Source: Dehalococcoidales bacterium (GTDB lineage: Bacteria > Chloroflexota > Dehalococcoidia > Dehalococcoidales > RBG-16-60-22). From it: a stretch of DNA of 36,227 nucleotides. Shown here piece after piece: positions 18,679 through 35,982 of the stretch; within the stretch, counting starts at the first letter, position 1, and each line of letters opens with the position of its first letter. The notes under the pieces were generated by a model, which was given only the letters and a program-made list of their open reading frames with translations, searched no databases and was not told the origin of the DNA. The position numbers and the translations under genes were made by a program. Where the stretch lies: contig DAIQQC010000005.1 in assembly GCA_036787005.1 (NCBI GenBank), positions 1-36,227 on the forward strand, given 5' to 3'.

Positions 18679-20364
18679 GTGAACAAGGTGTCTCCCGTGA
18701 AGTCGACCGGGCGAGGGGTAAATAGAGCTCCGTCAAGAGCGCACACTGTAAATGCGCCCGTTAAACCCTTGAAAGGGAATAAAGGTTTCTTAGATGCCAT
18801 TTTCAACAGCCTCGAGGACGAACTGATAGTTATTGACCGGGACTACCGGATAATACAGGCCAATGAGGCTGCCCTGTCAAGACACGGCCGCCACAGGCGG
18901 GGAATAATCGGGAAACCCTGTTATGAGATTAGTCATGGCCAGCCGGGGCCGTGCCATCCGCCCCATCATGAATGCCCGCTCCAGGAAGTATGGGAAACCG
19001 GTAAACCGGCACGGGTAACTCACTGTCATATCAGTCATGTCAACGGTGAAGAGCGCGAAAGATACCTTGATATTATCGCCTCTCCAATTACAGACAAACG
19101 GGGAAATGTGATCGCCGTTACCGAAATAATGCGTGACGTGACGGAGGCGAAAGAAGCGGAATCGAGAAGCGTTGAGGCTTACAAAAACCTCGTAGCTTTA
19201 AATACGATTGCCACGGCGGTGAACCAATCGCTGGACCTGGATACCGTGCTTTACAGCGCCATTGAGAAGACGCTGGAGATAATGAGGAGGAACACCGGGG
19301 GAATACTGTTGCTGGATGAAGAAAAGCAAATGTTATGCTACCGCGTCCATAACGGCCTCTCCAAGGAGTATGCTCAATCCGTGTGTTTTCGTCTGGGTGA
19401 AGGTATAGTAGGGAAGGTAGCCCAGAGCGGCGAGGCTATCATGGTGGACGATGTCTCAACGGACCCCCGTATTGCCCATCCCGGTCTTATCGCCGCCGAA
19501 AGGCTGCGTGCCTTTGCCGCTATTCCGCTTCGGGTAAGAGATAAAATCCTGGGAGTGCTTACCATTGCCAGCCATGATGCCCGCAAATTCTCTGGTGAAG
19601 ATGTCCAGCTCCTGGAAAGCATCGCCTCGCAGATAGCCATCGCCGTTGAAAATGCCACGCTGCACCAGGAGGTACAGCATAAAGATGAGAGCCGCGGTGA
19701 GCTCTTGGGCGAGATATTCTCCATCCAGGAGGAAGAACGGAGGAGAATTGCCCGGGAGCTGCACGATGAAACAAGCCAGTCGCTTGCCAGCCTGGCGGCC
19801 AGTCTTGAAGCGGTTGCCGTCATGTTGCCCTCCGGCGCCGATAAGGCCAGGGCCAGACTAAAAAAGATAGAGCAGGTAGCACTGAGCGCCCTTGACGAGA
19901 TACACAGGATAATTTACGAGCTACGGCCCACTTTACTCGATGACCTGGGTCTGGTTGCCGCTGTACGCTGGTTGGCCAATAATAACCTGGGGTCGGCCGG
20001 CATTGAGGTTATCTTTAAGACTACCGGAAGGGTAAGAAGGTTAACTCCCAAAGTGGAGACGATCCTTTTCAGGGTGATCCAGGAAGCGGTGAGCAATATT
20101 GCCAGGCACGCTCACGCCAGGCACGTAGATCTAACACTCCGTTATAAAAAGGATACCATTATTGTTCATATTAAAGACGATGGAGAAGGCTTTGCCGTGG
20201 AAGAGGCGATGAGTTCCCGGGAAAGGCCGCGGGGATTGGGGTTGCTGGGTATGAAAGAAAGAGTGGAACTCGTGCACGGTGCCTTGAATATCCGGTCGGT
20301 TCCCGGCAGCGGCACTGAAGTTCAAATGGAAATTCCCCTGAACCCGGAAGTCGCCGATGGATAA
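18679..20364 (+). CDS. soluble sensor histidine kinase, PAS(Cys/His-rich)-GAF-HisKA_3-HATPase_c
   Basis: 561 aa. GTG start 9 nt after AGGAG; no TM segment; H-box EERRRIARELHDETSQSL; C-terminal ATPase boxes (DDGEGF, GLGLLGMKERV). Confidence 0.85.
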   Translation: MNKVSPVKSTGRGVNRAPSRAHTVNAPVKPLKGNKGFLDAIFNSLEDELIVIDRDYRIIQANEAALSRHGRHRRGIIGKPCYEISHGQPGPCHPPHHECPLQEVWETGKPARVTHCHISHVNGEERERYLDIIASPITDKRGNVIAVTEIMRDVTEAKEAESRSVEAYKNLVALNTIATAVNQSLDLDTVLYSAIEKTLEIMRRNTGGILLLDEEKQMLCYRVHNGLSKEYAQSVCFRLGEGIVGKVAQSGEAIMVDDVSTDPRIAHPGLIAAERLRAFAAIPLRVRDKILGVLTIASHDARKFSGEDVQLLESIASQIAIAVENATLHQEVQHKDESRGELLGEIFSIQEEERRRIARELHDETSQSLASLAASLEAVAVMLPSGADKARARLKKIEQVALSALDEIHRIIYELRPTLLDDLGLVAAVRWLANNNLGSAGIEVIFKTTGRVRRLTPKVETILFRVIQEAVSNIARHAHARHVDLTLRYKKDTIIVHIKDDGEGFAVEEAMSSRERPRGLGLLGMKERVELVHGALNIRSVPGSGTEVQMEIPLNPEVADG

Positions 20365-21007
20365 GATAAAGATACTGGTGGTGGATGACCACGCCGTGTT
20401 GCGCGACGGCATACATGCTTTGCTGGGTCTGAACGACGACATCGAAATAGTCGGCGAAGCATCCGAAGGAAAGGAAGCGGTCGCGAAGGCACAGGAGCTG
20501 ATGCCTGACGTAGTGATTATGGACATCGCCATGCCCGGGATGGATGGCCTGGAGGCCACCCGCCGCATCAGGAAAAAACACCCCAAAATGAAGGTCCTGG
20601 TCCTGACCCAGCACGATAATAAAGAGTACGTACTATCGGTCATCAAGGCAGGGGCTTCCGGGTACGTACCCAAGCGGGCGCTGGGTTCAGAACTGGTATC
20701 GGCGATACGCGCTGTAAAGGAGGGAGACTCTTTCCTGTACCCGTCCGCAGCCGCCGCGCTGATCGAAGATTACCTCCAGCAGACCAAGGACCAGGAGCCC
20801 TATGACCAGCTATCGGCGAGGGAGAGAGAGATATTTCAGCTTATTGCCGAGGGGCATACCAGCCGGGAGATTGCCGACATGTTGTTTCTTAGCCAGAGGA
20901 CGGTCCAGGGACACCGGGTAAAAATAATGGAGAAGCTGAACTTGCATAACCGGACGGAACTGATCAAATATGCCATGCGCAAGGGAGTGGTAAGCCTGGA
21001 TACATAG
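20357..21007 (+). CDS. NarL/LuxR-family response regulator
   Basis: 216 aa. Receiver domain (VVDDH..., MDIAMPGMDG) plus LuxR HTH (LSAREREIFQLIAEGHTSREIADMLFLSQRTVQGHR). Start overlaps the kinase stop by 8 nt. Confidence 0.9.
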   Translation: MDKIKILVVDDHAVLRDGIHALLGLNDDIEIVGEASEGKEAVAKAQELMPDVVIMDIAMPGMDGLEATRRIRKKHPKMKVLVLTQHDNKEYVLSVIKAGASGYVPKRALGSELVSAIRAVKEGDSFLYPSAAAALIEDYLQQTKDQEPYDQLSAREREIFQLIAEGHTSREIADMLFLSQRTVQGHRVKIMEKLNLHNRTELIKYAMRKGVVSLDT

Positions 21008-25648: not shown

Positions 25649-28600
25649 CTAAGCTTTCCTAACATCGACCAGAAATGCTTTATATTCCGGTATCATCGTG
25701 TTAGCATCGCCGATGTGCGGCGTGAGCAGATTGGCGCTATCTCCCTTGGAAAGCCCGGAGTAACCCCAGTGCCAGAGCAAGCCTACCTCGTGCACCTTGC
25801 GGCCGTTCATCTGGAAGGGTTTAAAGCGTTTCGTCACCATGGCTGCCATCTTGACCTGGCCCCGGGCGGACTCGACGATAACCTTATCCCCGTTGGCGAT
25901 GCCCTTTTCCGCCGCCAGCTCCTCGCTCATCTCAACGAAAGGCTCGGGCTGCATCTCGATGAGCCAGGGCAGGTTCCGGGTCAGTTGCCCTGCCTGCCAG
26001 TGCTCGCAGACGCGGTAGGTTGTCCCCACGATGGGGAATTTATCGACACTACCATGCTCCTCCGGTCGCCATACTTTACACACCGGATTGCTCAGCTGGT
26101 CGGACATCTGGTTGGCAGACACCGGAGTTTCCCAGGGTTCATAAAATTCCGGCATGGGACCATCGGCCATCCCCTGGGCGAAGAGCCTGGCCACGCCCTC
26201 GGCGGTCATGATGAACGGGTATCTCGATTTCACCGGGTCGATAGCTATCGGCGGATAGTTGCCGTCAACGATGTCTCCGTCCCAGCCTCCTGTTTCGCCC
26301 TTGGTCGGATTCCACTGGATGACCGGGTGCTCTTTATCCCAGGGCTCGCCGTTCAGATCAACCGAAGCCCTGTTGTAGATGATGCGGCGGTTGACCGGCC
26401 AGCTCCAGGCCCACTTGGGGTAAAGCCCGACATTAAACTGGTCCGGGGTGAGGTCGCGTCGAGAGGCGCGATTGCCCGGGACGGGGGCATTCGGTTCTTT
26501 ATCCGGCTCCACATAGCTGCCGCAATAGACCCATTCGCCGCAGGCCGTCGAGCCGTCATCTTTAAGGTTCGGGAAGCCGTCGACCTGCAGACCGGTATTA
26601 GTATCGTACCCGTTTATCTCCTTGGCCACCTTGTGCACATCCGGAGCGTCGCCGTAGTTCCAGGTCATGCGGGTTACGGCTTCAGCGTTAGGGCCGCTCT
26701 CCTGTGTGTAAAGCTCCTTGAGCTTGAGCATGAGCTTGTTTATCATCCACAGGTCATCCTCGGCCTCGCCGGGTCCGTCGGCGGCTTTATAACGCCACTG
26801 CATCCAGCGGCTGCTGTTGGTGACACTCCCTTCTTTTTCAAAAGAGCTGCGGGCGGGGAGGACAAAGACCTCGGTCTTAATAGCTGACGGGTCCTGGACG
26901 TTCGGGGCTTTCCAGAATTCCATCGTCTCGGTCATCCAGAGGTCGCTGGCCACGAGCCAGTCCAGGCTGGCAAGCGCCTGCCGCTCCGCGTTGGAATTGG
27001 GGCCGCCCACGGCCGGGTTTTGTCCCCAGGCCATTAGGCCTTTTATTGTTCCCGCTCCCATGGCTTCGAACAGGGAAAGCCACGAGTAATTTTTACCGGT
27101 CTCTATCTTCGGCAGGTAGTGGAAGCCGAAATCATTGTCTTTACTGGCGGCGTCTCCGTACCAGGCTTTGAGCAGGCTGGTAATATATTTGGGGTAGTTC
27201 TGCAGCCAGTTAGCGCTCGTCGGGTCGCTGTTCCTGGGAGTGACCCGTTCCAGGTATTTTTGAAGCGATACATCCGCATCCGTGAACATCCCGAGATAGC
27301 CCGGAATGGAATCGAACAGCAGGCCGAAATCGGTGGAGCCCTGGACGTTGGACTCCCCCCTCATGGCGTCGATGCCGCCGCCGGACACTCCCATATTGGC
27401 CAGGAGGAGCTGGAGTATGGAATAAGCGCGGATGTTCTCGGCGCCGTTGGTGTGCTGGGTCGTGCCCATGGCATAAAGAATTACGCCGGCTTTGCCCGTC
27501 TTGCCGGTAGAGGCAAACGTCCGGCATACTTCGAGGAAGGTTTCTTGCGGGGTACCACAGATAGAGTTAACCTTCTCCGGCGTATAGCGGGCATATTGTC
27601 TCTTAAGAATCTGGAAGACGCAGTTAGAGTCGGCAAGAGTCTTGTCTTTCCGGGGAACACCGTTTTCATCAACCTGGTAGCCCCAGGTAGCTTTATCGTA
27701 CTTTCTCTTGGCGCCGTCGGTCTCATTTAAAGCGCCGGCATACCCGGAGAAGAGACCGTCGAGTTCCGCGGGCCCCCGGAACCCGGGATTGACGAGGTAA
27801 GCAGCATTGGTGTATTCCGTGATATAAACCATGTTGTAATTAGCCGGGTTAGCCTCAATATCGTCCAGCACGAACTTGATCATGCCGCCGACCAGGGCGA
27901 CATCCGTGCCCGACCTTATGGGAGCATAGACATCAGCTTTAGCTGAAGTGCGCGTAAACCGGGGGTCAACGCTGATGAGCTTGGCGCCTTTATCTTTTGC
28001 GATGGTGATGTGCCCGAAGGCAGCCGGGTGGTTCTCGGCCGGGTTCCCGCCGAGCGCCATGACCACGTCTGAATTGGCGATATCCCCCCAGTGATTGGTC
28101 ATGGCACCGCGCCCGAAGCTCTGCGCCAGACTGGCGACAGTGGGCGAATGTCAGAGGCGGGCTTGATGTTCGAGGTAAACTATACCCAGCGACCTGGCCA
28201 GCTTGACGAGGAGGTAACACTCTTCATTATCCAGGGCGGCGCCGCCGATGTTGGCGATCGCTTCCGTGCGGTTGACGGTATTGCCTTTGGCATCCCTTTC
28301 GATAAAAGCGCCGTCCCGGGTGGCCTTGATGCGGTGAGCGATTTCATCGATGGCCCAGTCCCAGGACTTTTCCTCGAATTCAGTCCCTCCGGGCGGGCGG
28401 TAAAGCACCTTGCGCAATCGCCAGGGATTGTCCGCCGAGAGCTGCCGCAACGTACCACCCTTGGCGCACCCGGCACCCCGGTTGACGGGATGGTCAGGGT
28501 CACCCTCGATGTTCACCACTTTGCCGTTTTCGGAGGTAACGAGAAAACCGCAACCGGAACCGTCATAGGGGCAAATGGTTGTCTTTTCGCCGAGCTTTTT

Positions 28601-28723
28601 CTTAAGTGGTATCGACTGCGGGGAGGCCGCCAGGGCTACATTGCCGTCAAGTAATTTGAGCAGAAAAACGCCGCCCACGCTCGCCCCTGAGGCTTTTAGA
28701 AAATCCCTTCGGCTCAGCTCCAT
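25649..28723 (-). CDS. fdnG: formate dehydrogenase catalytic alpha subunit, selenocysteine-containing, Tat-exported
   Basis: ORF-track pieces 28151..28750 and 25649..28102 are one frame joined through TGA at 28151..28153: ...[35 protein letters not shown] (the FDH Sec-His signature). ATG 28723 lies 6 nt after AAAGGAG and gives MELSRRDFLKASG (twin-arginine signal). Mo/W-bisPGD family layout. Confidence 0.9.
28111..28145 (-). promoter_or_regulatory. candidate bacterial SECIS hairpin 3' of the UGA
   Basis: mRNA reads UGA CAUUC GCCC ACUGU CGCCA GUC UGGCG CAGAGCUUC GGGC. Apical 5-bp stem with a GU-containing loop starts 14 nt after the UGA; closing GCCC/GGGC stem. Confidence 0.35.
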
Positions 28724-28912
28724 TATTTCTCCTTTCGCTCTTTCTACCATACCGCTCGGATAAATGGTAATTGATCAGGGCATGCGCATAACAGACAACC
28801 TTTCTAATAAGAATAACGGGTACTGGCCTGGTCGGTATGCGAAAAAGTGCTCATGTTGTTGATATAAACGCCCCAAATCCTCAGGAAAAAGTACCCAATT
28901 TATCCGGAAACA

Positions 28913-28990: not shown

Positions 28991-30910
28991 CTACGATGGC
29001 ACTTCCATGGTCAGGCTGGTCCCTTTCTCGTGCCCGCTATCGATGGTTAAAGTCCCTCCCAGCAATTGAGCGCGCTCCTGCATCCCGGCTAAACCGAGCC
29101 GGCCGCTCCTGGCCAGGTCGCCCATCCTCTCCGGTATCTCGAATCCACGTCCATTGTCGTTGACCGTTACCCTGGTAGTATTATCGGTAAACTCGATAAC
29201 GACACCGGCGCGGCTGGCTCCGGAATGTTTTTGTACATTGGTCAATGCTTCCTGGGTGATACGGAATAGCGTTAACTCGGCATCGGGCGGAAGCTGGTGC
29301 GGCTCGCCGGCCACCTTGACGTCGACAGGTATCCCGTAGTTCTTGGTCAGGTCCGCAGCCAGCCACTTTACTGCCGGCAGTAGTCCCAGGTCATCCAGTA
29401 CGGAAGGCCGGAGTTGCTGGCTGAAGCGGCGTATCTCCCTGAGGATATCTCTCACCTGTTCCTGGATTTCCTTTACGGAGAAACTGGAGTGGCCTGAAGC
29501 CAGATCGTCCAGGTTCCGCACCACCGTGACCAGACTTTGGGCCGTCACGTCATGCAGTTCCCGCGCAATGCGCTTGCGCTCCGCTTCCTGGGCCTGGCTT
29601 ACTTTCTGCACATAATATTTCAGGTTGTCATGGATCTTTTTTTCTTCGGTAATATCGCGTGCGATGTGCTGGAAAGCCCACGGTTGTCCATCTTTGGTTA
29701 TCAGGCTGGTCCCGATCTGAATGATAGCCGTGCTGCCGTCCCTCCGGACCAATTCCTGTTCCAGGGGATCGGCGTTTTTACCACTCAGCACCACGTCATG
29801 CGCTTCTTTATCCATCTTACTCTTGCCATGCTCCGAGAGAAGCAAGGATATATTGGCATCGAGCAGGATAGTGCGTTCGTAACCTGTCAGTTTTTCAAAA
29901 GCACTATTTACCGCCACGATTCTTCCGTTAAGGTCATGGACCCATATGGCGTCACTGGCGCTCTCGAATAATTGCCGGTAGCTTTTCTCCGAGACACGCA
30001 GGGCCTCGGCTATCATTCTCTCCCTCTCATAAAGTCGGGCATTTTCCAGCGCCATGCTTAACTGGTCAGCCGCGGCACGCACTAAATCCACCTCGTCCGC
30101 GGAGAAGTGATGCGCCAGGCGGGAGCCGACTCCCAGCGTGCCTACTAACTCGCCTTTGGTAATCAAGGGGACGACGAGTCTGCTTTGCAGGTCACGCTGC
30201 TTCCACGGCGTGGAAGATACTCTCGATTCAGATAAAGCGTTTTCGGTAATGACCGCTTGTCTTGATTTAACCGCCTTACCGTCATTCCGTTCTCCCGGCA
30301 TGACAATCTCAGGCAATGTCGGACCGGGCAGTCCTTTAGCAGCTGCCAGCTTCAACCATTGTTTCTCTTCGTCCCAGAGATATAACCAGGCGGTTTCGAT
30401 TTGAATGAGCTGCCTGATCATATCAACTGCGGCCAGGATATCTTCGACCTTCAGGGATTGGCTGACGTTGCTGGACATAGCATGCAGCATGCTCAACCTT
30501 TCAACCTGTACATCGAGGGTTTTATGCACCTTCTCAAGCTCGATAAGCCTTTGTCTTGCCTTCTGCAGGACGTCAATAAGCAAGATGATAAGAAGCCCGG
30601 TAAAAACGACCCCGATGGTTTCGAACAGGGCTTCCTTCGGCGTTTCCGAGACCACGAAGACGCGGGGCAGCATCGCGGCAAGCGCCAGCACCAGTAGACT
30701 GATGCCCGCCCCTCTGCCCAGTGTTAACGCCCCGTAGGTTATCGGTACCAGGAAAAGAATTCGCCCGAAAGTCTGGCGCGTCAGGCCGAACTCTAATACA
30801 GAGCCAATCCGCTCAAAAAACCATACATGGGCGAAGGACTCGTGATAGTGTATGATTACCAGGAGCGCTAACAACACGGCTACTACCAGCAGGTGGTAGC
30901 TCCGCGGCAC
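28991..30910 (-). CDS. membrane sensor histidine kinase, TM-GAF-PAS-HisKA_3-HATPase_c
   Basis: 639 aa. GTG start; about 4 N-terminal TM helices; H-box EAERKRIARELHDVTAQSL; ATPase boxes (NDNGRGF, GLAGMQERA). Confidence 0.85.
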   Translation of the reverse strand: MPRSYHLLVVAVLLALLVIIHYHESFAHVWFFERIGSVLEFGLTRQTFGRILFLVPITYGALTLGRGAGISLLVLALAAMLPRVFVVSETPKEALFETIGVVFTGLLIILLIDVLQKARQRLIELEKVHKTLDVQVERLSMLHAMSSNVSQSLKVEDILAAVDMIRQLIQIETAWLYLWDEEKQWLKLAAAKGLPGPTLPEIVMPGERNDGKAVKSRQAVITENALSESRVSSTPWKQRDLQSRLVVPLITKGELVGTLGVGSRLAHHFSADEVDLVRAAADQLSMALENARLYERERMIAEALRVSEKSYRQLFESASDAIWVHDLNGRIVAVNSAFEKLTGYERTILLDANISLLLSEHGKSKMDKEAHDVVLSGKNADPLEQELVRRDGSTAIIQIGTSLITKDGQPWAFQHIARDITEEKKIHDNLKYYVQKVSQAQEAERKRIARELHDVTAQSLVTVVRNLDDLASGHSSFSVKEIQEQVRDILREIRRFSQQLRPSVLDDLGLLPAVKWLAADLTKNYGIPVDVKVAGEPHQLPPDAELTLFRITQEALTNVQKHSGASRAGVVIEFTDNTTRVTVNDNGRGFEIPERMGDLARSGRLGLAGMQERAQLLGGTLTIDSGHEKGTSLTMEVPS

Positions 30911-30976
30911 CGCCGCGACCCAGTGTCTTATCTTGCCCGATATTTCCTTTACCGTGGCTATATCACTACCCTGCTC

Positions 30977-31642
30977 TCAAGACAATTCTTCAAAAGAAAG
31001 CCAGCCCCTTTTTACTGCCTGAAATATGGCCTCGGTGCGTGAACCCACGCTGAGCTTATTGAAGATACTGCTCAGATGCCCCTGGACGGTACGCACATTG
31101 ATAAACAGCGCATCGGCGATATCGCTGTTACTCTTACCGCTGGCGGCCAACTTCAGTACTTCCATTTCCCGTTCACTCAACTCCACGGCCGGTTTCTCCT
31201 TGCCGGCGTCGGTGGACGGAGGCCTGAAACGGCTGATGACCTTACGGGCTATGACGGGGTGCAGCACCGATTCACCGGCGTACACAGCCCTGACAGCGTC
31301 AACCACCTCTCGGCTGTCCACGTCTTTCAGCAAATAGCCGGCGGCTCCCGCCTCCAGAAGCGCGAAAACGTATTCGTCGTCATCATAAGCGGTCAGTATC
31401 AGTACCGCCGTGGCCGGGAGGCGGGGCTTTATCTGCCGTGTGACCTCAACCCCGTTAAGCCTGGGCATGGCTATATCGAGGATCGCCACGTCCGGCTTTA
31501 AGCGCTCGATGACTTTTACCGCCTCCTCCCCGTCACCGGCTTCCCCCACGACCTCCATATCATTCTCTCTCTCCAGCAGGCTGCGGGTGCCCTGTCTTAC
31601 CATGGCGTGGTCATCAGCGATAACAATCCTGATCTTGCCCAT
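30977..31642 (-). CDS. NarL/LuxR-family response regulator
   Basis: 221 aa. Receiver domain (IADDH, LDIAMPRLNG) plus LuxR HTH (LSEREMEVLKLAASGKSNSDIADALFINVRTVQGH). Confidence 0.9.
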   Translation of the reverse strand: MGKIRIVIADDHAMVRQGTRSLLERENDMEVVGEAGDGEEAVKVIERLKPDVAILDIAMPRLNGVEVTRQIKPRLPATAVLILTAYDDDEYVFALLEAGAAGYLLKDVDSREVVDAVRAVYAGESVLHPVIARKVISRFRPPSTDAGKEKPAVELSEREMEVLKLAASGKSNSDIADALFINVRTVQGHLSSIFNKLSVGSRTEAIFQAVKRGWLSFEELS

Positions 31643-31780: not shown

Positions 31781-32197
31781 TTAGTTCGGTTTCTTAACGA
31801 TATTCAGATCAAGCCGGTAGTCTTTGTCCTTTATGTCCTGGCCCACCTGGGGATAAGGTTTCAGGTCGAACGCAATATCGTAGTTGGCGAAATCGGTCTG
31901 CACCGGCGTCGTTAGTCCCGGTTGCGTCAGCACCTTATCGAACGTTTTGTTCGCGTAATCGATCTCAATCAGGCAGCTGGCTTCACCGGCCCAGATGCAT
32001 ACCACACCCGCGGCGCAGCGGCTATCCCCGACGACGTCGATAAAACGGATGATCAGGTCCTCCCCGTTAACCGAGGCACTCTGCCCGATCGCCAGGGTAA
32101 ACGTTACACCGGGGTTGGCGTAGATATCAGCAGGAGCGCCGCAGCCCGCCACTGTTAGCAGGACCAGGGGTAAAACCCAGACTATGTATTTGCGCAT
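31781..32197 (-). CDS. small lipoprotein, unknown function
   Basis: ORF 31781..32212. ATG 32197 lies 5 nt after GGGAGG. Signal MRKYIVWVLPLVLLTVAGC (lipobox). Mature part contains CAAGVVCIWAGEASC. Confidence 0.6.
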   Translation of the reverse strand: MRKYIVWVLPLVLLTVAGCGAPADIYANPGVTFTLAIGQSASVNGEDLIIRFIDVVGDSRCAAGVVCIWAGEASCLIEIDYANKTFDKVLTQPGLTTPVQTDFANYDIAFDLKPYPQVGQDIKDKDYRLDLNIVKKPN

Positions 32198-32306
32198 CGT
32201 GCCCTCCCGCATACAGGAACATGCTGTGATATGAGCCTAGCATGCGGGCTATAAAAAAGTCATCAAGCCCATGCGTAAAAAATTACGTTTTTGTGACATT
32301 AATCTT

Positions 32307-32840
32307 CTACTTGTATAGTGCCGCCCAGACGATAGCGTCTAAAACCGCGGTGTGGAAAGCGAAATAACCGCTGCCCACTACTGCCAGCCAGTAGGCTGTG
32401 CCGGGGACTTTACCTTGTAAGGTAAGGAGTGCCCAGAGAAGGGCAATTGACGCTAAGCCGACCAGTGCCAGAACAGTGCGAATCCAGATCCATATACCTG
32501 TGCTCGGGTTGCTGACGTAAGCATTTGTCAGCGGCATCCAGAAAGCCGAAGGAACTAAAATAAACAGAAATATAATGTAGAATAAGGTAAAGCCGGATAC
32601 GCCCGCAATGCTTATCTGTGATGGCTCAAGCCGGACAAGAATATAATATATAAAAGCAAAATACCCCAGTGCGGATAGAATCATCGAAACAGTGTATATC
32701 GGCCTGATGCTGTTCGGGACACCGCCCCAGAGAACACTCGCCCCGCCGGCTTGTGTATTGAGACCGAAAATATAACTGCCGATAACCGCGGCTCCCCCGA
32801 AAATATTAATGACTAATAAGATGATTTGCGGTGTGCTCAT
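32307..32840 (-). CDS. 5-TM membrane protein, unknown function
   Basis: 177 aa, five hydrophobic helices. Its ATG overlaps the degV stop (ATGA at 32837..32840), implying translational coupling. Confidence 0.6.
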   Translation of the reverse strand: MSTPQIILLVINIFGGAAVIGSYIFGLNTQAGGASVLWGGVPNSIRPIYTVSMILSALGYFAFIYYILVRLEPSQISIAGVSGFTLFYIIFLFILVPSAFWMPLTNAYVSNPSTGIWIWIRTVLALVGLASIALLWALLTLQGKVPGTAYWLAVVGSGYFAFHTAVLDAIVWAALYK

Positions 32841-33703
32841 ATGCTTGCCTCCATGGGGTATTTTGCCTGTGACCGTCTCAGTGCTACTAAAAGTACTCCC
32901 GGGCCGCCGTGCACTCCCAGTCCCGCGCCGAGCTCATTGATGACTATCGCCTCCTCCTTAATAAAATCACTGAGGCGTTTTTTCAATACGTCTGCCTGGT
33001 CGGCTATTTTACTATGCACGATAACAAGTTCACTTATCGGGGCATTATTTTTAACGAATTCATAGATACGGTCCATTCCTCTGCTTATAGTACGCACGAG
33101 CCCGGCACGCACTATTTCTCCGCTTCTAAAAGTCAGAAGGGGCATGACATTTAGAAGCCTTGACGCTGCCGCTATTGTTTTATTAACCCTGCCGCTGCGG
33201 GCAAGGTACTTCATCGTTTCAAACATCCCGAACATACCAACCTGCTTAACGGCTCTATTAGCTTCATTGACAACGTCCGCAAGGTTGGCCCCGGCATGTG
33301 CAAGGCACGCCGCGGCGGTAACCACCAGACCCAGGCCGGCGGAATTGAACCGCGAATCGATTACTTCAATGGGGCAGCGACTTTCCAGCGTTTTTTTGGC
33401 GATGGTCGCTGAGTTATAAGTGCCGCTGATCCGGGATGAAATGTGGATGGACACGATGCCCTCGGTCTTATCACAGTACTCTTTATAAACACTGGCGAAA
33501 TCCTCCGGATTTGGCTGGGATGTCGCCGGATGTACCTTCGAGGAAGCTAACTTCGAGTAAAATTCCTCGTTCCGAATATCTACCCCATCGCGGTAAGTAT
33601 TTTCACCAAACCTCACGTATATCGGCACCACTCTGATTCCCAGTTCTTGCGCCAGCTCTGGAGGGATATCGGAGGTGCTGTCCGTGATGACCTGAACCTT
33701 CAT
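32837..33703 (-). CDS. degV: DegV-family fatty-acid/lipid-binding protein
   Basis: ORF 32837..33730. ATG 33703 follows AGAGGGGA. Start MKVQVITDSTSDIPPELAQELGIRVVPIYV is the classic DegV N-terminus; about 288 aa. Confidence 0.85.
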   Translation of the reverse strand: MKVQVITDSTSDIPPELAQELGIRVVPIYVRFGENTYRDGVDIRNEEFYSKLASSKVHPATSQPNPEDFASVYKEYCDKTEGIVSIHISSRISGTYNSATIAKKTLESRCPIEVIDSRFNSAGLGLVVTAAACLAHAGANLADVVNEANRAVKQVGMFGMFETMKYLARSGRVNKTIAAASRLLNVMPLLTFRSGEIVRAGLVRTISRGMDRIYEFVKNNAPISELVIVHSKIADQADVLKKRLSDFIKEEAIVINELGAGLGVHGGPGVLLVALRRSQAKYPMEASI

Positions 33704-33766
33704 GTCACTATCCCCTCTGACTCCTGGCAAAGCAAAAAGGCTGCCACCTTAATATTATCTCAACAT

Positions 33767-34531
33767 TTATATCGTCAGCACCGGTGCAAACACCTGCCAG
33801 GCCAGCAGCGCCTTGGCGGTGAGACTGAGGATGATATACACTTTCTCCCCGAAAAGGTAGTCCCGCCAGGGGCCGATCTTTTTATACTGCAAGACCAGGT
33901 TGACGGCGAAACAGTTGAAGAAAACGAAAAGCGAGGCAATGATCCCGTAGACAAAACCGGGCGGCGATGCCTCCAACCCCGGTGCCACGACATAAATTAT
34001 GATGGCGATCCACGGAATAATCCCGGCAAAGCTCCCGAACCAGAACGGCAGCCAGCCGGGCCTGCCCGGTTTCTCATATTTCTCCTGCAGCGCCCCGAAG
34101 AGTATCATGCAGGCGTTGATGCCGAAGATGGCCAGCAGGGCGGCGATGTCGCTGATGCCGGTGATTTGAGCGATCAATACGATCATGATAGAGGAGCTGA
34201 AAAAATACTCGATCCAGCGCCCGTAGTTACGGTTCTGCAGCAGGTTGCGCTTGTACCAGGGGAAAACAAGAGGCGAGGCAATAATCAGCAGAGCGGCGGC
34301 CGAGATTGCCAGGAAGGCAAAGACACCCCAACCCGTTTGAATATCAAACAGGTGGCGTAGTGATGACGCGCTGCCGGGAGCGCCTTCCATGAACGTGGCG
34401 GTCACCGGGAGAGAGAAGTTATTAGTGAGGACCGCCATCATCACCGCCTGTACCGCAAGAATGAGACCGACGACGATATTCCAGATACGCAGCCGGGCCA
34501 GTTGCTTTTCGACGGACGGGTCAATAGCCAT
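33767..34531 (-). CDS. heliorhodopsin (7-TM retinal protein, inverted topology family)
   Basis: 254 aa. RWIEYFFSSSIMIVLIAQITGISDIAALLAIFGINACMILFGALQEKY, LPFWFGSFAGIIPWIAIIIYVVAPG, PGFVYGIIASLFVFFNCFAV and YIILSLTAKALLAWQVF are near-colinear with my recollection of heliorhodopsin 48C12 (RWVEYSLSSSVMIVLIAQ..., LSLVAKSALAWQ). The TM3 Glu and TM7 Lys are retained. GGGAGG RBS 6 nt before the ATG. Confidence 0.9.
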   Translation of the reverse strand: MAIDPSVEKQLARLRIWNIVVGLILAVQAVMMAVLTNNFSLPVTATFMEGAPGSASSLRHLFDIQTGWGVFAFLAISAAALLIIASPLVFPWYKRNLLQNRNYGRWIEYFFSSSIMIVLIAQITGISDIAALLAIFGINACMILFGALQEKYEKPGRPGWLPFWFGSFAGIIPWIAIIIYVVAPGLEASPPGFVYGIIASLFVFFNCFAVNLVLQYKKIGPWRDYLFGEKVYIILSLTAKALLAWQVFAPVLTI

Positions 34532-34571
34532 TATTCACCTCCCTAATAGTATATTTATCGAGTGGTAAAAT

Positions 34572-34600
34572 ATTATATGAAAACCGCTGGAAAAATGCAA
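34572..34600 (-). promoter_or_regulatory. sigma70-type promoter of the heliorhodopsin operon
   Basis: Minus strand: TTGCAT (34600..34595), 17-nt spacer, TATAAT (34577..34572), about 40 nt upstream of the ATG. Confidence 0.55.
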
Positions 34601-34719: not shown

Positions 34720-35982
34720 TTAGACCCAGCCGCGCAGCTTCATGGCTTCCACGACGCGCTCCACCGCCCGCACGTAAGCCGCCTGCCGCATGTTGATCTT
34801 GTATTCCTTGCTGGTGTTCAGCACGGAATGATAGGCGGAGGTCATTTTCCTATCGAGGCGTTCGTAGACGTCCTTGATGTCCCAGGTATACATGTAGAAG
34901 TTCTGGACCATCTCGAAGTAGGAAACCGTTACGCCGCCGGCGTTACAAAGGAAATCAGGTATGATGTGGACGCCCTTTTTAAAGAGGATATCATCGGCTT
35001 CCGGGGTGGTCGGCCCGTTGGCCAGCTCGGCGATTATCTTGGCGTGGACGTTGCGGGCGTTCTTCTCCGTGATGATGTTCTCGATGGCCGCCGGGATCAG
35101 GATATCGACGTTCAGCTCGAGCAACTCGGCGTTGGACATGCTTTCCGCGCCGGGCAGGTTGCAGACGGTGCTGGTCTGGCTCTTGCAGGCGGCCGCTTCT
35201 TCCGGGTCGATGCCGTCGAAGTTACAGATCGCCCCCTTGCTGTCGCAGACGGCGATTACTTTCGACCCGAACATTTCCTGGCAGAGCCGGGCGGCGTAAT
35301 AGCCGGCGTTGCCGTAGCCGTGCACGGCCACGGTGGCTTTGCTGAGGTCGATGCCGAGCGCCCTGGCGGCCTCGCGGATGGTGAACATGCCGCCGCGGGC
35401 GGTGGCGTCGCCGCGGCCCGGCGATCCGCCGATAGCCAGCGGTTTACCCGTGATGACACCGAACTGCGGCTTGCCGGCGATGACGGAGTATTCATCCATC
35501 ATCCAGGCCATGATCTGGGGGGTGGTATAGACGTCCGGGGCGGGGACGTCTTTTTCCGGCCCGATGAACGGATAAACGGCGCGGATATACGCCCGGCTTA
35601 ACCGCTCCAGTTCGGCCTGGGACATTTCTTTAGGATTGCAAATCACGCCGCCCTTGGCGCCGCCGAGGGGCAGGTCGAGCAGGGAACACTTCCAGGTCAT
35701 CCAGGACGCCAGCGCCCTGACGGTGTCGATCGTCTCTTCGGGATGGAACCTGATACCGCCCTTGGTGATGCCCAGGGCGTCGTTGTACTGGACCCGGAAC
35801 CCCTGGAAGACTTTAATGGAGCCGTCGTCCATGCGCACCGGCAGCGCTACGTGGAGCTCGCGCTGCGGGGTCTTGAGTATCGCCGTAATCTCGGGTTTCA
35901 GGTTCAGGATCTCGGCGCACTGGTCGATCTGCCTCTTGGCGGTCTCGAACGGATTGATCTTTACCTCGGTTTTGGCTGGCAT
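34720..35982 (-). CDS. gdhA: glutamate dehydrogenase (Glu/Leu/Phe/Val dehydrogenase family)
   Basis: 420 aa. KGGIRFHPEE and LPLGGAKGGV catalytic-Lys motifs; GYGNAGYYAA dinucleotide fold; AAAGGAGAAAA RBS. Confidence 0.95.
   Translation of the reverse strand: MPAKTEVKINPFETAKRQIDQCAEILNLKPEITAILKTPQRELHVALPVRMDDGSIKVFQGFRVQYNDALGITKGGIRFHPEETIDTVRALASWMTWKCSLLDLPLGGAKGGVICNPKEMSQAELERLSRAYIRAVYPFIGPEKDVPAPDVYTTPQIMAWMMDEYSVIAGKPQFGVITGKPLAIGGSPGRGDATARGGMFTIREAARALGIDLSKATVAVHGYGNAGYYAARLCQEMFGSKVIAVCDSKGAICNFDGIDPEEAAACKSQTSTVCNLPGAESMSNAELLELNVDILIPAAIENIITEKNARNVHAKIIAELANGPTTPEADDILFKKGVHIIPDFLCNAGGVTVSYFEMVQNFYMYTWDIKDVYERLDRKMTSAYHSVLNTSKEYKINMRQAAYVRAVERVVEAMKLRGWV

Follow-up and report, generated by a model that had tools for sequence, protein, structure and literature searches.

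We describe a 36-kb stretch of DNA (contig DAIQQC010000005.1, positions 1 to 36,227; hereafter the window) from a sediment Dehalococcoidia bacterium, in which a heliorhodopsin (HeR) gene is followed on the same strand by a gene for a DegV/FakB-like fatty-acid-binding protein and by a gene for a membrane protein with five transmembrane helices (the 5-TM protein). The three genes are arranged as an operon-like unit, and the same order is found again in many independent genomes and metagenomes. The HeR-DegV module and the lipid hypothesis attached to it have been published previously, also for HeRs of the type encoded here (Chazan et al., 10.1101/2021.02.16.431466; elsewhere Chazan et al., 2022), and the locus is of a known kind. 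An initial annotation of the window had proposed the HeR-DegV association and light-regulated lipid handling; both were anticipated by that work, which includes a Dehalococcoidia HeR with the same His-to-Leu replacements. The sole new element is the 5-TM family, which is undescribed, confidently modelled and without a solved structural analogue. Tentatively, and with a little less than an even chance of being right, we read the locus as an instance of the published cluster in which the 5-TM protein takes the place of DUF2177 and DUF1295 as the membrane partner, and in which lipid handling by DegV and the 5-TM protein is modulated by HeR in the light.

Structure of the heliorhodopsin, DegV and 5-TM unit

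Six co-oriented open reading frames (ORFs) lie on the minus strand between positions 28991 and 34531, and the ORFs of the initial annotation lie at the coordinates stated there. The first three encode HeR (33767-34531), DegV (32837-33703) and the 5-TM protein (32307-32840). A gap of 63 nt separates the HeR stop from the DegV ATG at 33703, and the DegV stop overlaps the 5-TM start by 4 nt, in the ATGA at 32837-32840; both had been read correctly from the sequence. A scan of the minus strand found no terminator-like site between the three genes. In particular, the spacer between HeR and DegV was judged to hold neither a terminator nor an attenuator, since the scan gave no site there and the folding energy of the spacer had a z of -0.02 when compared with shuffled sequences. 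The gap, the overlap and the absence of a terminator show that HeR, DegV and the 5-TM protein are encoded by an operon-like unit.

The 5' boundary of this transcription unit is marked by the strong intrinsic terminator that ends the glutamate dehydrogenase gene upstream (34720-35982, minus strand; Pfam ELFV_dehydrog); this terminator consists of a 14-pair stem with eight G-C pairs at 34687-34654 on the minus strand, followed by ATTTTTTT. Just 3' of this terminator a putative promoter can be read at 34572-34600 (minus strand), with TTGCAT at 34600-34595, a spacer of 17 nt and TATAAT at 34577-34572. Between it and the HeR ATG lies the ribosome binding site GGGAGGTG (34543-34536, minus strand). 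The proposal that HeR possesses its own promoter and a strong ribosome binding site is borne out in part. Both elements are present and the -10 hexamer is perfect, but the -35 hexamer is weak, and because it matches TTGACA at only three of six positions the promoter was not called by a consensus promoter scan.

Judged by profile searches and alignment, the 254-residue product of the first gene is a true heliorhodopsin, as the initial annotation had proposed. It scores 323.6 bits against the Pfam profile PF18761 (cut-off 26.7), which it covers in full, and 319 bits against the NCBIfam HeR equivalog NF038020 (cut-off 100). It aligns from end to end and without large gaps with the 48C12 heliorhodopsin (6su3; E 8e-73) and is also matched by TaHeR (6is6; E 1e-54). 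The two functional residues said to be retained are in place: Glu108, within the motif RWIEY that starts at residue 105, aligns with the TM3 counterion Glu107 of 48C12 (RWVEY), and Lys240, within the motif SLTAK that starts at residue 236, aligns with the TM7 Schiff-base lysine Lys241 (SLVAK). Leu25 and Leu81 replace the conserved histidines of TM1 and TM2 (His23 and His80 in 48C12), which are typical of the family and do not define it. The HULAa30F3 HeR, a branch A protein of Dehalococcoidia from Lake Hula, carries the same replacements (H25L/H81L) and has a DegV gene alongside; it binds retinal, absorbs at 562 nm and has a long-lived O state with little accumulation of M (Chazan et al., 10.1101/2021.02.16.431466). 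Because the leucines occupy the same numbered positions, 25 and 81, we assign the window HeR to the same type, from which retinal binding and a long photocycle would be predicted by analogy.

The DegV protein matches PF02645 with 251.9 bits and TIGR00762 with 280.1 bits (cut-off 99.7). Its longest ORF begins at a TTG at 33730; the ATG at 33703 (MKVQVITDS), which public gene calls use in 99%-identical loci and which gives a protein of 288 residues, is likely to be the real start. The nearest solved structures are those of DegV from T. thermophilus (2dt8), DegV from B. subtilis (3fys) and FakB2 from S. aureus (4x9x). With the help of motifs and of alignment to these three structures, Thr61, Ser89/90/93, Ser170-Gly171-Arg172, Arg204 and His265 were assigned as the counterparts of Thr62, Ser95, Ser171, Arg173, Arg205 and His270 in FakB1. 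In FakB1, Thr62, Ser95, Ser171 and His270 hold the carboxylate of the fatty acid, Arg173 is required for kinase catalysis, and Arg205 is required for contact with the membrane and with FakA (PMC8892158). At the level of its sequence, then, the window DegV retains the carboxylate hydrogen-bond network of FakB together with both conserved arginines. An intact network of this kind suggests that the ligand is a carboxylic acid and not an aldehyde.

The third gene encodes 177 residues of an unnamed family and was the least described part of the locus. The protein has no match in Pfam or in NCBIfam, and 89 diverse relatives are likewise without a consistent Pfam family, in a family that comprises 943 clusters at 90% identity and 456 at 50%. 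Conserved residues are Gly16, Val19, Ser22, Tyr23, Trp38-Gly39, Met53, Ser98, Trp101, Pro103, Arg121, Leu124, Thr164, Asp168 and Trp172. An AlphaFold2 model built from the family alignment has a mean pLDDT of 96.7 and a pTM of 0.91 and shows five long helices and one short one, and a Foldseek search of the PDB with this model returned no analogue (best E > 1, TM < 0.5). By the positive-inside rule a cytoplasmic N-terminus is weakly favoured (4.1 vs 2.7 lysines plus arginines, in 61 of 90 sequences), and the conserved residues would then probably lie on the side opposite the N-terminus, in the outer leaflet.

Several identities for the 5-TM protein were considered and rejected. It is not DUF2177: none of 90 members matches PF09945 at E <= 1, and an hhalign comparison with a DUF2177 protein gave a probability of 0.1. 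Neither sequence nor structure supports DUF1295, TspO, PlsY or another known fold. A retinal-forming oxygenase was discarded, since no His or Cys that might hold a metal is conserved in the family. Longer members of the family, P0202 among others, were inspected as possible fusions and carry no informative extra domain. At one locus (L049, 11702-12239; loci are designated here by L numbers) the 5-TM gene that follows HeR and DegV is split by a frameshift into two overlapping ORFs, reflecting a pseudogene or an assembly error.

Recurrence of the linkage

The claim that the HeR-DegV-5-TM linkage is conserved and non-random was borne out by neighbourhood surveys. The HeR survey covered 80 species-representative genome loci whose HeRs are 70-89% identical to that of the window, and 47 of these loci are Chloroflexota-labelled with at least 2 kb of downstream sequence. 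DegV was present at 13 of the 47, the 5-TM gene at 12 and both at 10 (Fisher p = 3e-6, with relatedness not corrected). When ORFs within 4 kb of HeR were clustered without reference to any label, DegV emerged as the first family (14 loci) and the 5-TM protein as the second (12 loci), with generic regulators and ABC ATPases ranking below both. The linkage of HeR to DegV and the 5-TM protein is real and covers about a quarter of this HeR clade, within which the 5-TM gene is as frequent a neighbour as DegV.

Neither gene was found near HeR at any of 20 Actinomycetota loci. HeRs 70-81% identical to the window protein occur in metagenome-assembled genomes of Thermoleophilia and other Actinomycetota (L045-L083) without DegV or the 5-TM gene, which would fit a lateral transfer of HeR on its own and agrees with cluster C5 of Bulzu et al. 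(10.1101/2021.02.01.429150). The same authors described a sediment cluster of HeRs common to Thermoleophilia and Dehalococcoidia, which the relatives retrieved here match, and they had already described HeRs of anaerobic Chloroflexota; a light sensor in an anaerobic context, which the initial annotation had singled out, is not a novelty of this locus. At five loci without DegV (L009, L018, L022, L038 and L052; for example L038, 10818-11927) the gene directly after HeR encodes a protein that has two transmembrane helices, carries a conserved HRH motif and falls in no known family; in at least three of them (L022, L038 and L052) a ferritin-like protein comes next.

A second survey was centred on the 5-TM gene and comprised 80 metagenomic loci with 68-99% identity, found with a narrow alignment. 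At 34 of the 48 informative loci DegV lies on the same strand no more than 150 bp upstream of the 5-TM gene, and the spacer in 32 distinct DegV-5-TM pairs is 0-35 nt. HeR stands directly upstream of 13 of the 20 pairs for which there is room further upstream. These data show that DegV and the 5-TM gene form a tight two-gene cassette, which is found repeatedly, whether HeR is present or not. No partner of DegV is tighter than the 5-TM protein, whose primary role as a DegV partner had been overlooked.

The trio is also found in other arrangements. The cassette may be followed directly by a divergent HeR (L120), the 5-TM gene may precede HeR (L134, L161) or follow it directly (L014), or it may lie on the opposite strand after HeR-DegV (L026, L042); at L041 a DUF2177-HeR pair converges with an operon of DegV, a SOUL gene, a short-chain dehydrogenase/reductase (SDR) gene and the 5-TM gene. 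The linkage also extends to divergent HeRs, at 43-46% identity, and to a second subfamily of DegV, at 36-39% identity. Inspection of these loci shows that HeR, DegV and the 5-TM protein are kept together through rearrangements. The second DegV subfamily (L129, L132, L136, L138, L143 and L149) has KTSP in place of TSQP and possesses no equivalent of His265. Its gene, too, precedes the 5-TM gene, by 35 nt, so that the 5-TM protein is partnered also with DegV paralogues whose ligand site is altered.

These results may be compared with the published census, in which the neighbours of thousands of HeRs were set against those of proton pumps (Chazan et al., 10.1101/2021.02.16.431466). In that study DegV was the strongest HeR neighbour, with significant enrichment against the proton-pump neighbourhoods; DUF2177, often together with DUF1295, was also characteristic, chiefly in Firmicutes and Chloroflexi, and light-dependent remodelling of membrane lipids was proposed. 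A later preprint noted that the DegV link is not universal among HeRs. DUF2177 and DUF1295 occur in loci related to ours (L048 and L041). In the complete genome of Dehalogenimonas sp. (CP139473.1; L048, 8768-12872) the order is DegV-HeR-DegV-DUF1295-DUF2177 without a 5-TM gene, so that DUF1295 and DUF2177 occupy the position after DegV that is held in the window by the 5-TM gene. An SDR resembling enoyl-ACP reductase is encoded near this cluster.

At L115 (238-4255) and L114 a divergent HeR is followed by DegV, an SDR like 3-beta-hydroxysteroid dehydrogenase (3-beta-HSD) or an epimerase, a membrane protein like steroid 5-alpha-reductase that also matches the DUF1295 profile, and the 5-TM protein; L158 (2764-5955) has the same order without the reductase-like gene. 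At L164 a 5-TM relative of 39% identity comes directly after a DUF2177 gene. The 5-TM family belongs within the published HeR-DegV-DUF2177-DUF1295 neighbourhood network, where a Pfam-based census could not detect it because it has no Pfam model. The HeRs at the head of the L115, L114 and L158 operons are 44-46% identical to that of the window, and the SDR encoded in these operons also matches the 'male sterility' domain of fatty-acyl reductases.

What the unit may do

Our tentative reading supposes the following sequence of events. Cytosolic DegV would pick up or deliver a fatty-acid-like carboxylate at the membrane, with the 5-TM protein acting as its dedicated docking or exchange partner there. 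HeR would be a sensor with a slow photocycle that, by analogy, may bind DegV or the 5-TM protein and alter its activity in the light; this binding is suggested because other HeRs act on a glutamine synthetase, a photolyase or an ABC transporter encoded in their operons. What would result is that the handling of membrane lipids or fatty acids is adjusted in response to light, plausibly within a photo-oxidative stress response. A bolder version, which we consider decidedly unlikely, makes the 5-TM protein the physical link from HeR to lipid metabolism: in complex with HeR it would recruit DegV, and light would gate the loading or release of the fatty-acid-like carboxylate. If the 5-TM protein were such a link, a rhodopsin would for the first time have an output directed at lipids, and the protein would define a new family of membrane proteins with the role played by DUF2177 and DUF1295 in other lineages.

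A number of results weigh against the light-modulated lipid-handling reading. At about 72% of the closest Chloroflexota HeR loci DegV and the 5-TM gene are both missing from the neighbourhood, and six of the 20 informative DegV-5-TM pairs lack an adjacent HeR. The contexts of distant 5-TM relatives (30-45% identity) are mostly unrelated, with most of these contigs too short to inform. The probable placement of the conserved 5-TM residues in the outer leaflet makes them a poor fit to a docking site for a cytosolic DegV. DegV itself scores 138.8 bits against the FakB1 equivalog NF038249, under the cut-off of 350, and is not a FakB1 equivalog; no gene for the kinase subunit FakA (Dak2) was found in the 36-kb window. 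The searched literature, in which three papers name HeR and DegV together, holds no experiment that ties HeR to DegV, physically or functionally.

Among other explanations, the one that deserves most attention, although we think it somewhat unlikely, is that the three genes share regulation only, as members of a membrane-maintenance regulon responding to light and oxidative stress; HeR would then contact neither partner and any signal from it would go elsewhere, for instance to the two-component system nearby. Just downstream in the window there are indeed genes for a GAF-PAS histidine kinase and a LuxR-type regulator, and genes of oxidative stress are found at related loci: KatG, Fur and a fragment of AhpC at L001, ferritin-like, DJ-1/PfpI and SOUL genes adjoining HeR, and ArsC-family, KatG and Fur genes adjoining the 5-TM gene. 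Oxidative-stress and histidine-kinase genes near HeRs have also been noted by others (Chazan et al., 10.1101/2021.02.16.431466; Bulzu et al., 10.1101/2021.02.01.429150). However, the kinase-regulator pair does not recur as a neighbour across species, and the tight operonic spacing of the trio, together with its persistence through strand flips and changes of order, exceeds what is usual for a loose regulon. Moreover, the three characterised HeR functions are reported to involve direct binding to an operon-encoded partner. That the three genes are functionally unrelated and adjacent by chance is extremely improbable. The lack of DegV and the 5-TM gene at most HeR loci of the clade would fit this idea, but the trio occurs on dozens of independent contigs, in several gene orders and at divergence down to 43-54% identity. 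In addition, DegV and the 5-TM protein are the top two families in the label-free clustering, and HeR-DegV enrichment is significant against proton-pump neighbourhoods (10.1101/2021.02.16.431466).

Two further explanations turn on the ligand. As the initial annotation had also suggested, DegV might deliver the chromophore; in this scheme DegV, the 5-TM protein or both would deliver or make retinal for HeR in a host with no known retinal pathway and, in the boldest form, DegV would bind retinoic acid, from which, after its activation, the SDR or reductase enzymes encoded at some loci would produce retinal by reduction. No blh or crt gene was found in the window, as the annotation had stated for retinal biosynthesis; HeR-only genomes generally lack blh, and a retinal route of another kind has been proposed for them (10.1101/2021.02.16.431466). 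Extended SDRs, with matches to 3-beta-HSD and to the 'male sterility' reductase domain, lie between DegV and the 5-TM gene at L115, L158 and L109. The window's operon has no SDR, however, and the carboxylate-binding network of DegV makes an aldehyde ligand unlikely. The existence of DegV-5-TM cassettes without an adjacent HeR, the absence of DegV and the 5-TM gene from most closely related HeR loci, and the want of a conserved His or Cys for a metal centre in the 5-TM family, where an oxygenase would in any case be odd in an anaerobe, make chromophore supply quite improbable. Alternatively, DegV and the 5-TM protein may belong to a pathway for products of the breakdown of chlorophyll detritus or of other phototoxic pigments, for example phytol-derived acids, with HeR signalling the light in which such compounds are dangerous. 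This we regard as improbable. Staygreen (Mg-dechelatase family) genes are found one or two genes downstream of the 5-TM gene at 31 of the 80 metagenomic loci and PNPOx-like genes at 11 of the 80; SOUL haem-binding genes are near HeR at three loci, and genes like those for steroid 5-alpha-reductase and 3-beta-HSD are interleaved with the cassette at some loci. None of these Staygreen, PNPOx-like, SOUL or reductase-like genes is in the window, though, and the argument is drawn from family names. Moreover, the Staygreen link comes mostly from the metagenome set, where it may reflect one dominant lineage, and appears at one of the 80 species-representative HeR loci.

Neighbouring genes and comparison with known systems

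Downstream of the 5-TM gene lies a gene for a small lipoprotein of 138-143 residues (31781-32212, minus strand), with a lipobox LTVAGC whose Cys24 is invariant in 22 homologues as read by eye. The family is tiny (27 proteins found) and has no Pfam or NCBIfam model; its conserved motifs are GDSRCxxGVxCIWAGE, LTQPG and PYP, and its predicted structure is all-beta with a pLDDT of 85 and no PDB analogue. The distance of 94 nt from the 5-TM stop, given by the initial annotation, is correct for the start of the ORF but rises to 109 nt if translation begins at MRKY, as in homologues and in public gene calls. The 94-nt spacer (32213-32306, minus strand) folds with -30.7 kcal/mol (z = -2.86 vs shuffled sequence) into two hairpins without a T-run; it may serve in processing or regulation, or mark a weak end of transcription. 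The lipoprotein gene is probably the last gene of the unit, or else a separate unit. It follows the 5-TM gene at the closest loci (L005, L084-L086 and L175-L177), and in three other species it comes directly after HeR (L006, 3056-3463; L021, 10794-11207; L069, 823-1233), as if, in the lineage of the window, these two genes had been separated by insertion of the DegV-5-TM cassette.

The remaining two co-oriented ORFs encode, by Pfam match, the LuxR-type response regulator (30977-31642, minus strand) and a GAF-PAS-HisKA_3 histidine kinase (28991-30910, minus strand), preceded by a promoter-like site of their own (TTGAAG-17-TATAAT at 31691-31663, minus strand). This pair is kept beside the operon only in near-identical loci. 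The window contains two paralogous pairs of PAS/GAF-HisKA_3 kinase and LuxR-type regulator, at 18679-21007 on the plus strand and at 28991-31642 on the minus strand. A 99%-identical block of HeR, DegV, 5-TM, lipoprotein, response regulator, histidine kinase and formate dehydrogenase genes is present in another metagenome-assembled genome, GCA_964593785.1 (L175), with other genes 5' of HeR and without glutamate dehydrogenase; this difference places a rearrangement breakpoint just 5' of the HeR promoter region.

Further along, an in-frame TGA at 28153-28151, followed by HSPTVASLAQSFGRGAMTNHW, divides a molybdopterin oxidoreductase gene (25649-28750, minus strand) into two ORFs. The gene product looks like the alpha subunit of a selenocysteine formate dehydrogenase with a twin-arginine translocation signal, in agreement with the selenocysteine enzyme named in the initial annotation, and the formate dehydrogenase ORFs are followed by Fe-S, cytochrome b, FdhE-like and TatC genes. 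Among the metagenomic loci an ArsC-family gene is near the 5-TM gene at 35 of 80, with none in the window; examples of the Staygreen gene are found at L116 (2728-3189), L109 (1895-2356) and L001 (10503-11006), within the range L084-L163. The set of Staygreen, ArsC and PNPOx genes lends an odd tetrapyrrole and redox flavour to these non-phototrophic Dehalococcoidia.

HeRs are widespread and have an established function in a handful of cases, and the HeR-DegV association is the strongest genomic clue to what they do. The gain made here is incremental: the central idea is already in the literature and no mechanism is demonstrated. Nevertheless, the locus is compact, with three or four genes, and is of the DegV-linked HeR type for which photochemistry has already been measured. 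The 5-TM protein, translationally coupled to DegV, offers a concrete third component for binding and reconstitution work, and neighbourhood censuses based on Pfam overlooked it, a partner that in this clade is as common as DegV.

Sensory rhodopsin II pairs with a small helical membrane transducer, HtrII, that is encoded alongside it. The likeness to our locus is one of analogy only, for the 5-TM protein has no HAMP or methyl-accepting domain and its linkage to DegV is tighter than that to the rhodopsin; in the fold search with the 5-TM model the sensory rhodopsin II/HtrII structure appeared only as a non-significant match. The FakA/FakB system of Firmicutes (PMC8892158, PMC9136124) resembles ours in the DegV fold and in the counterparts of six FakB1 residues. 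It differs in that our DegV falls below the FakB1 cut-off, that FakA is missing from the window, and that DegV is translationally coupled to a 5-TM gene, whereas the ligand of FakB passes directly between protein and bilayer and no dedicated membrane protein is known for FakB.

Other HeRs are reported to bind and regulate products of their operons, namely AbHeR with glutamine synthetase (PMC9529153), TfHeR with photolyase (PMC9769723) and OcHeR with the ABC transporter OmrDE (PMC11109279). They resemble the present locus in that HeR shares an operon with a non-signalling protein, and the model in each case is direct binding with modulation by light; the partner here would instead be a fatty-acid-binding protein, a small membrane protein or both. 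The HeR-DegV-DUF2177-DUF1295 neighbourhood, too, has HeR co-oriented with DegV and a small membrane protein right after it, but the window has no DUF2177 or DUF1295 match and the 5-TM gene follows DegV instead. As for the HULAa30F3 locus, whose fosmid is among GenBank MW122873-MW122884, its paper mentions only DegV as a neighbour, and the comparison is with that description. Within this scope the two loci agree, each having a Dehalococcoidia branch A HeR with leucines at positions 25 and 81 and an adjoining DegV gene.

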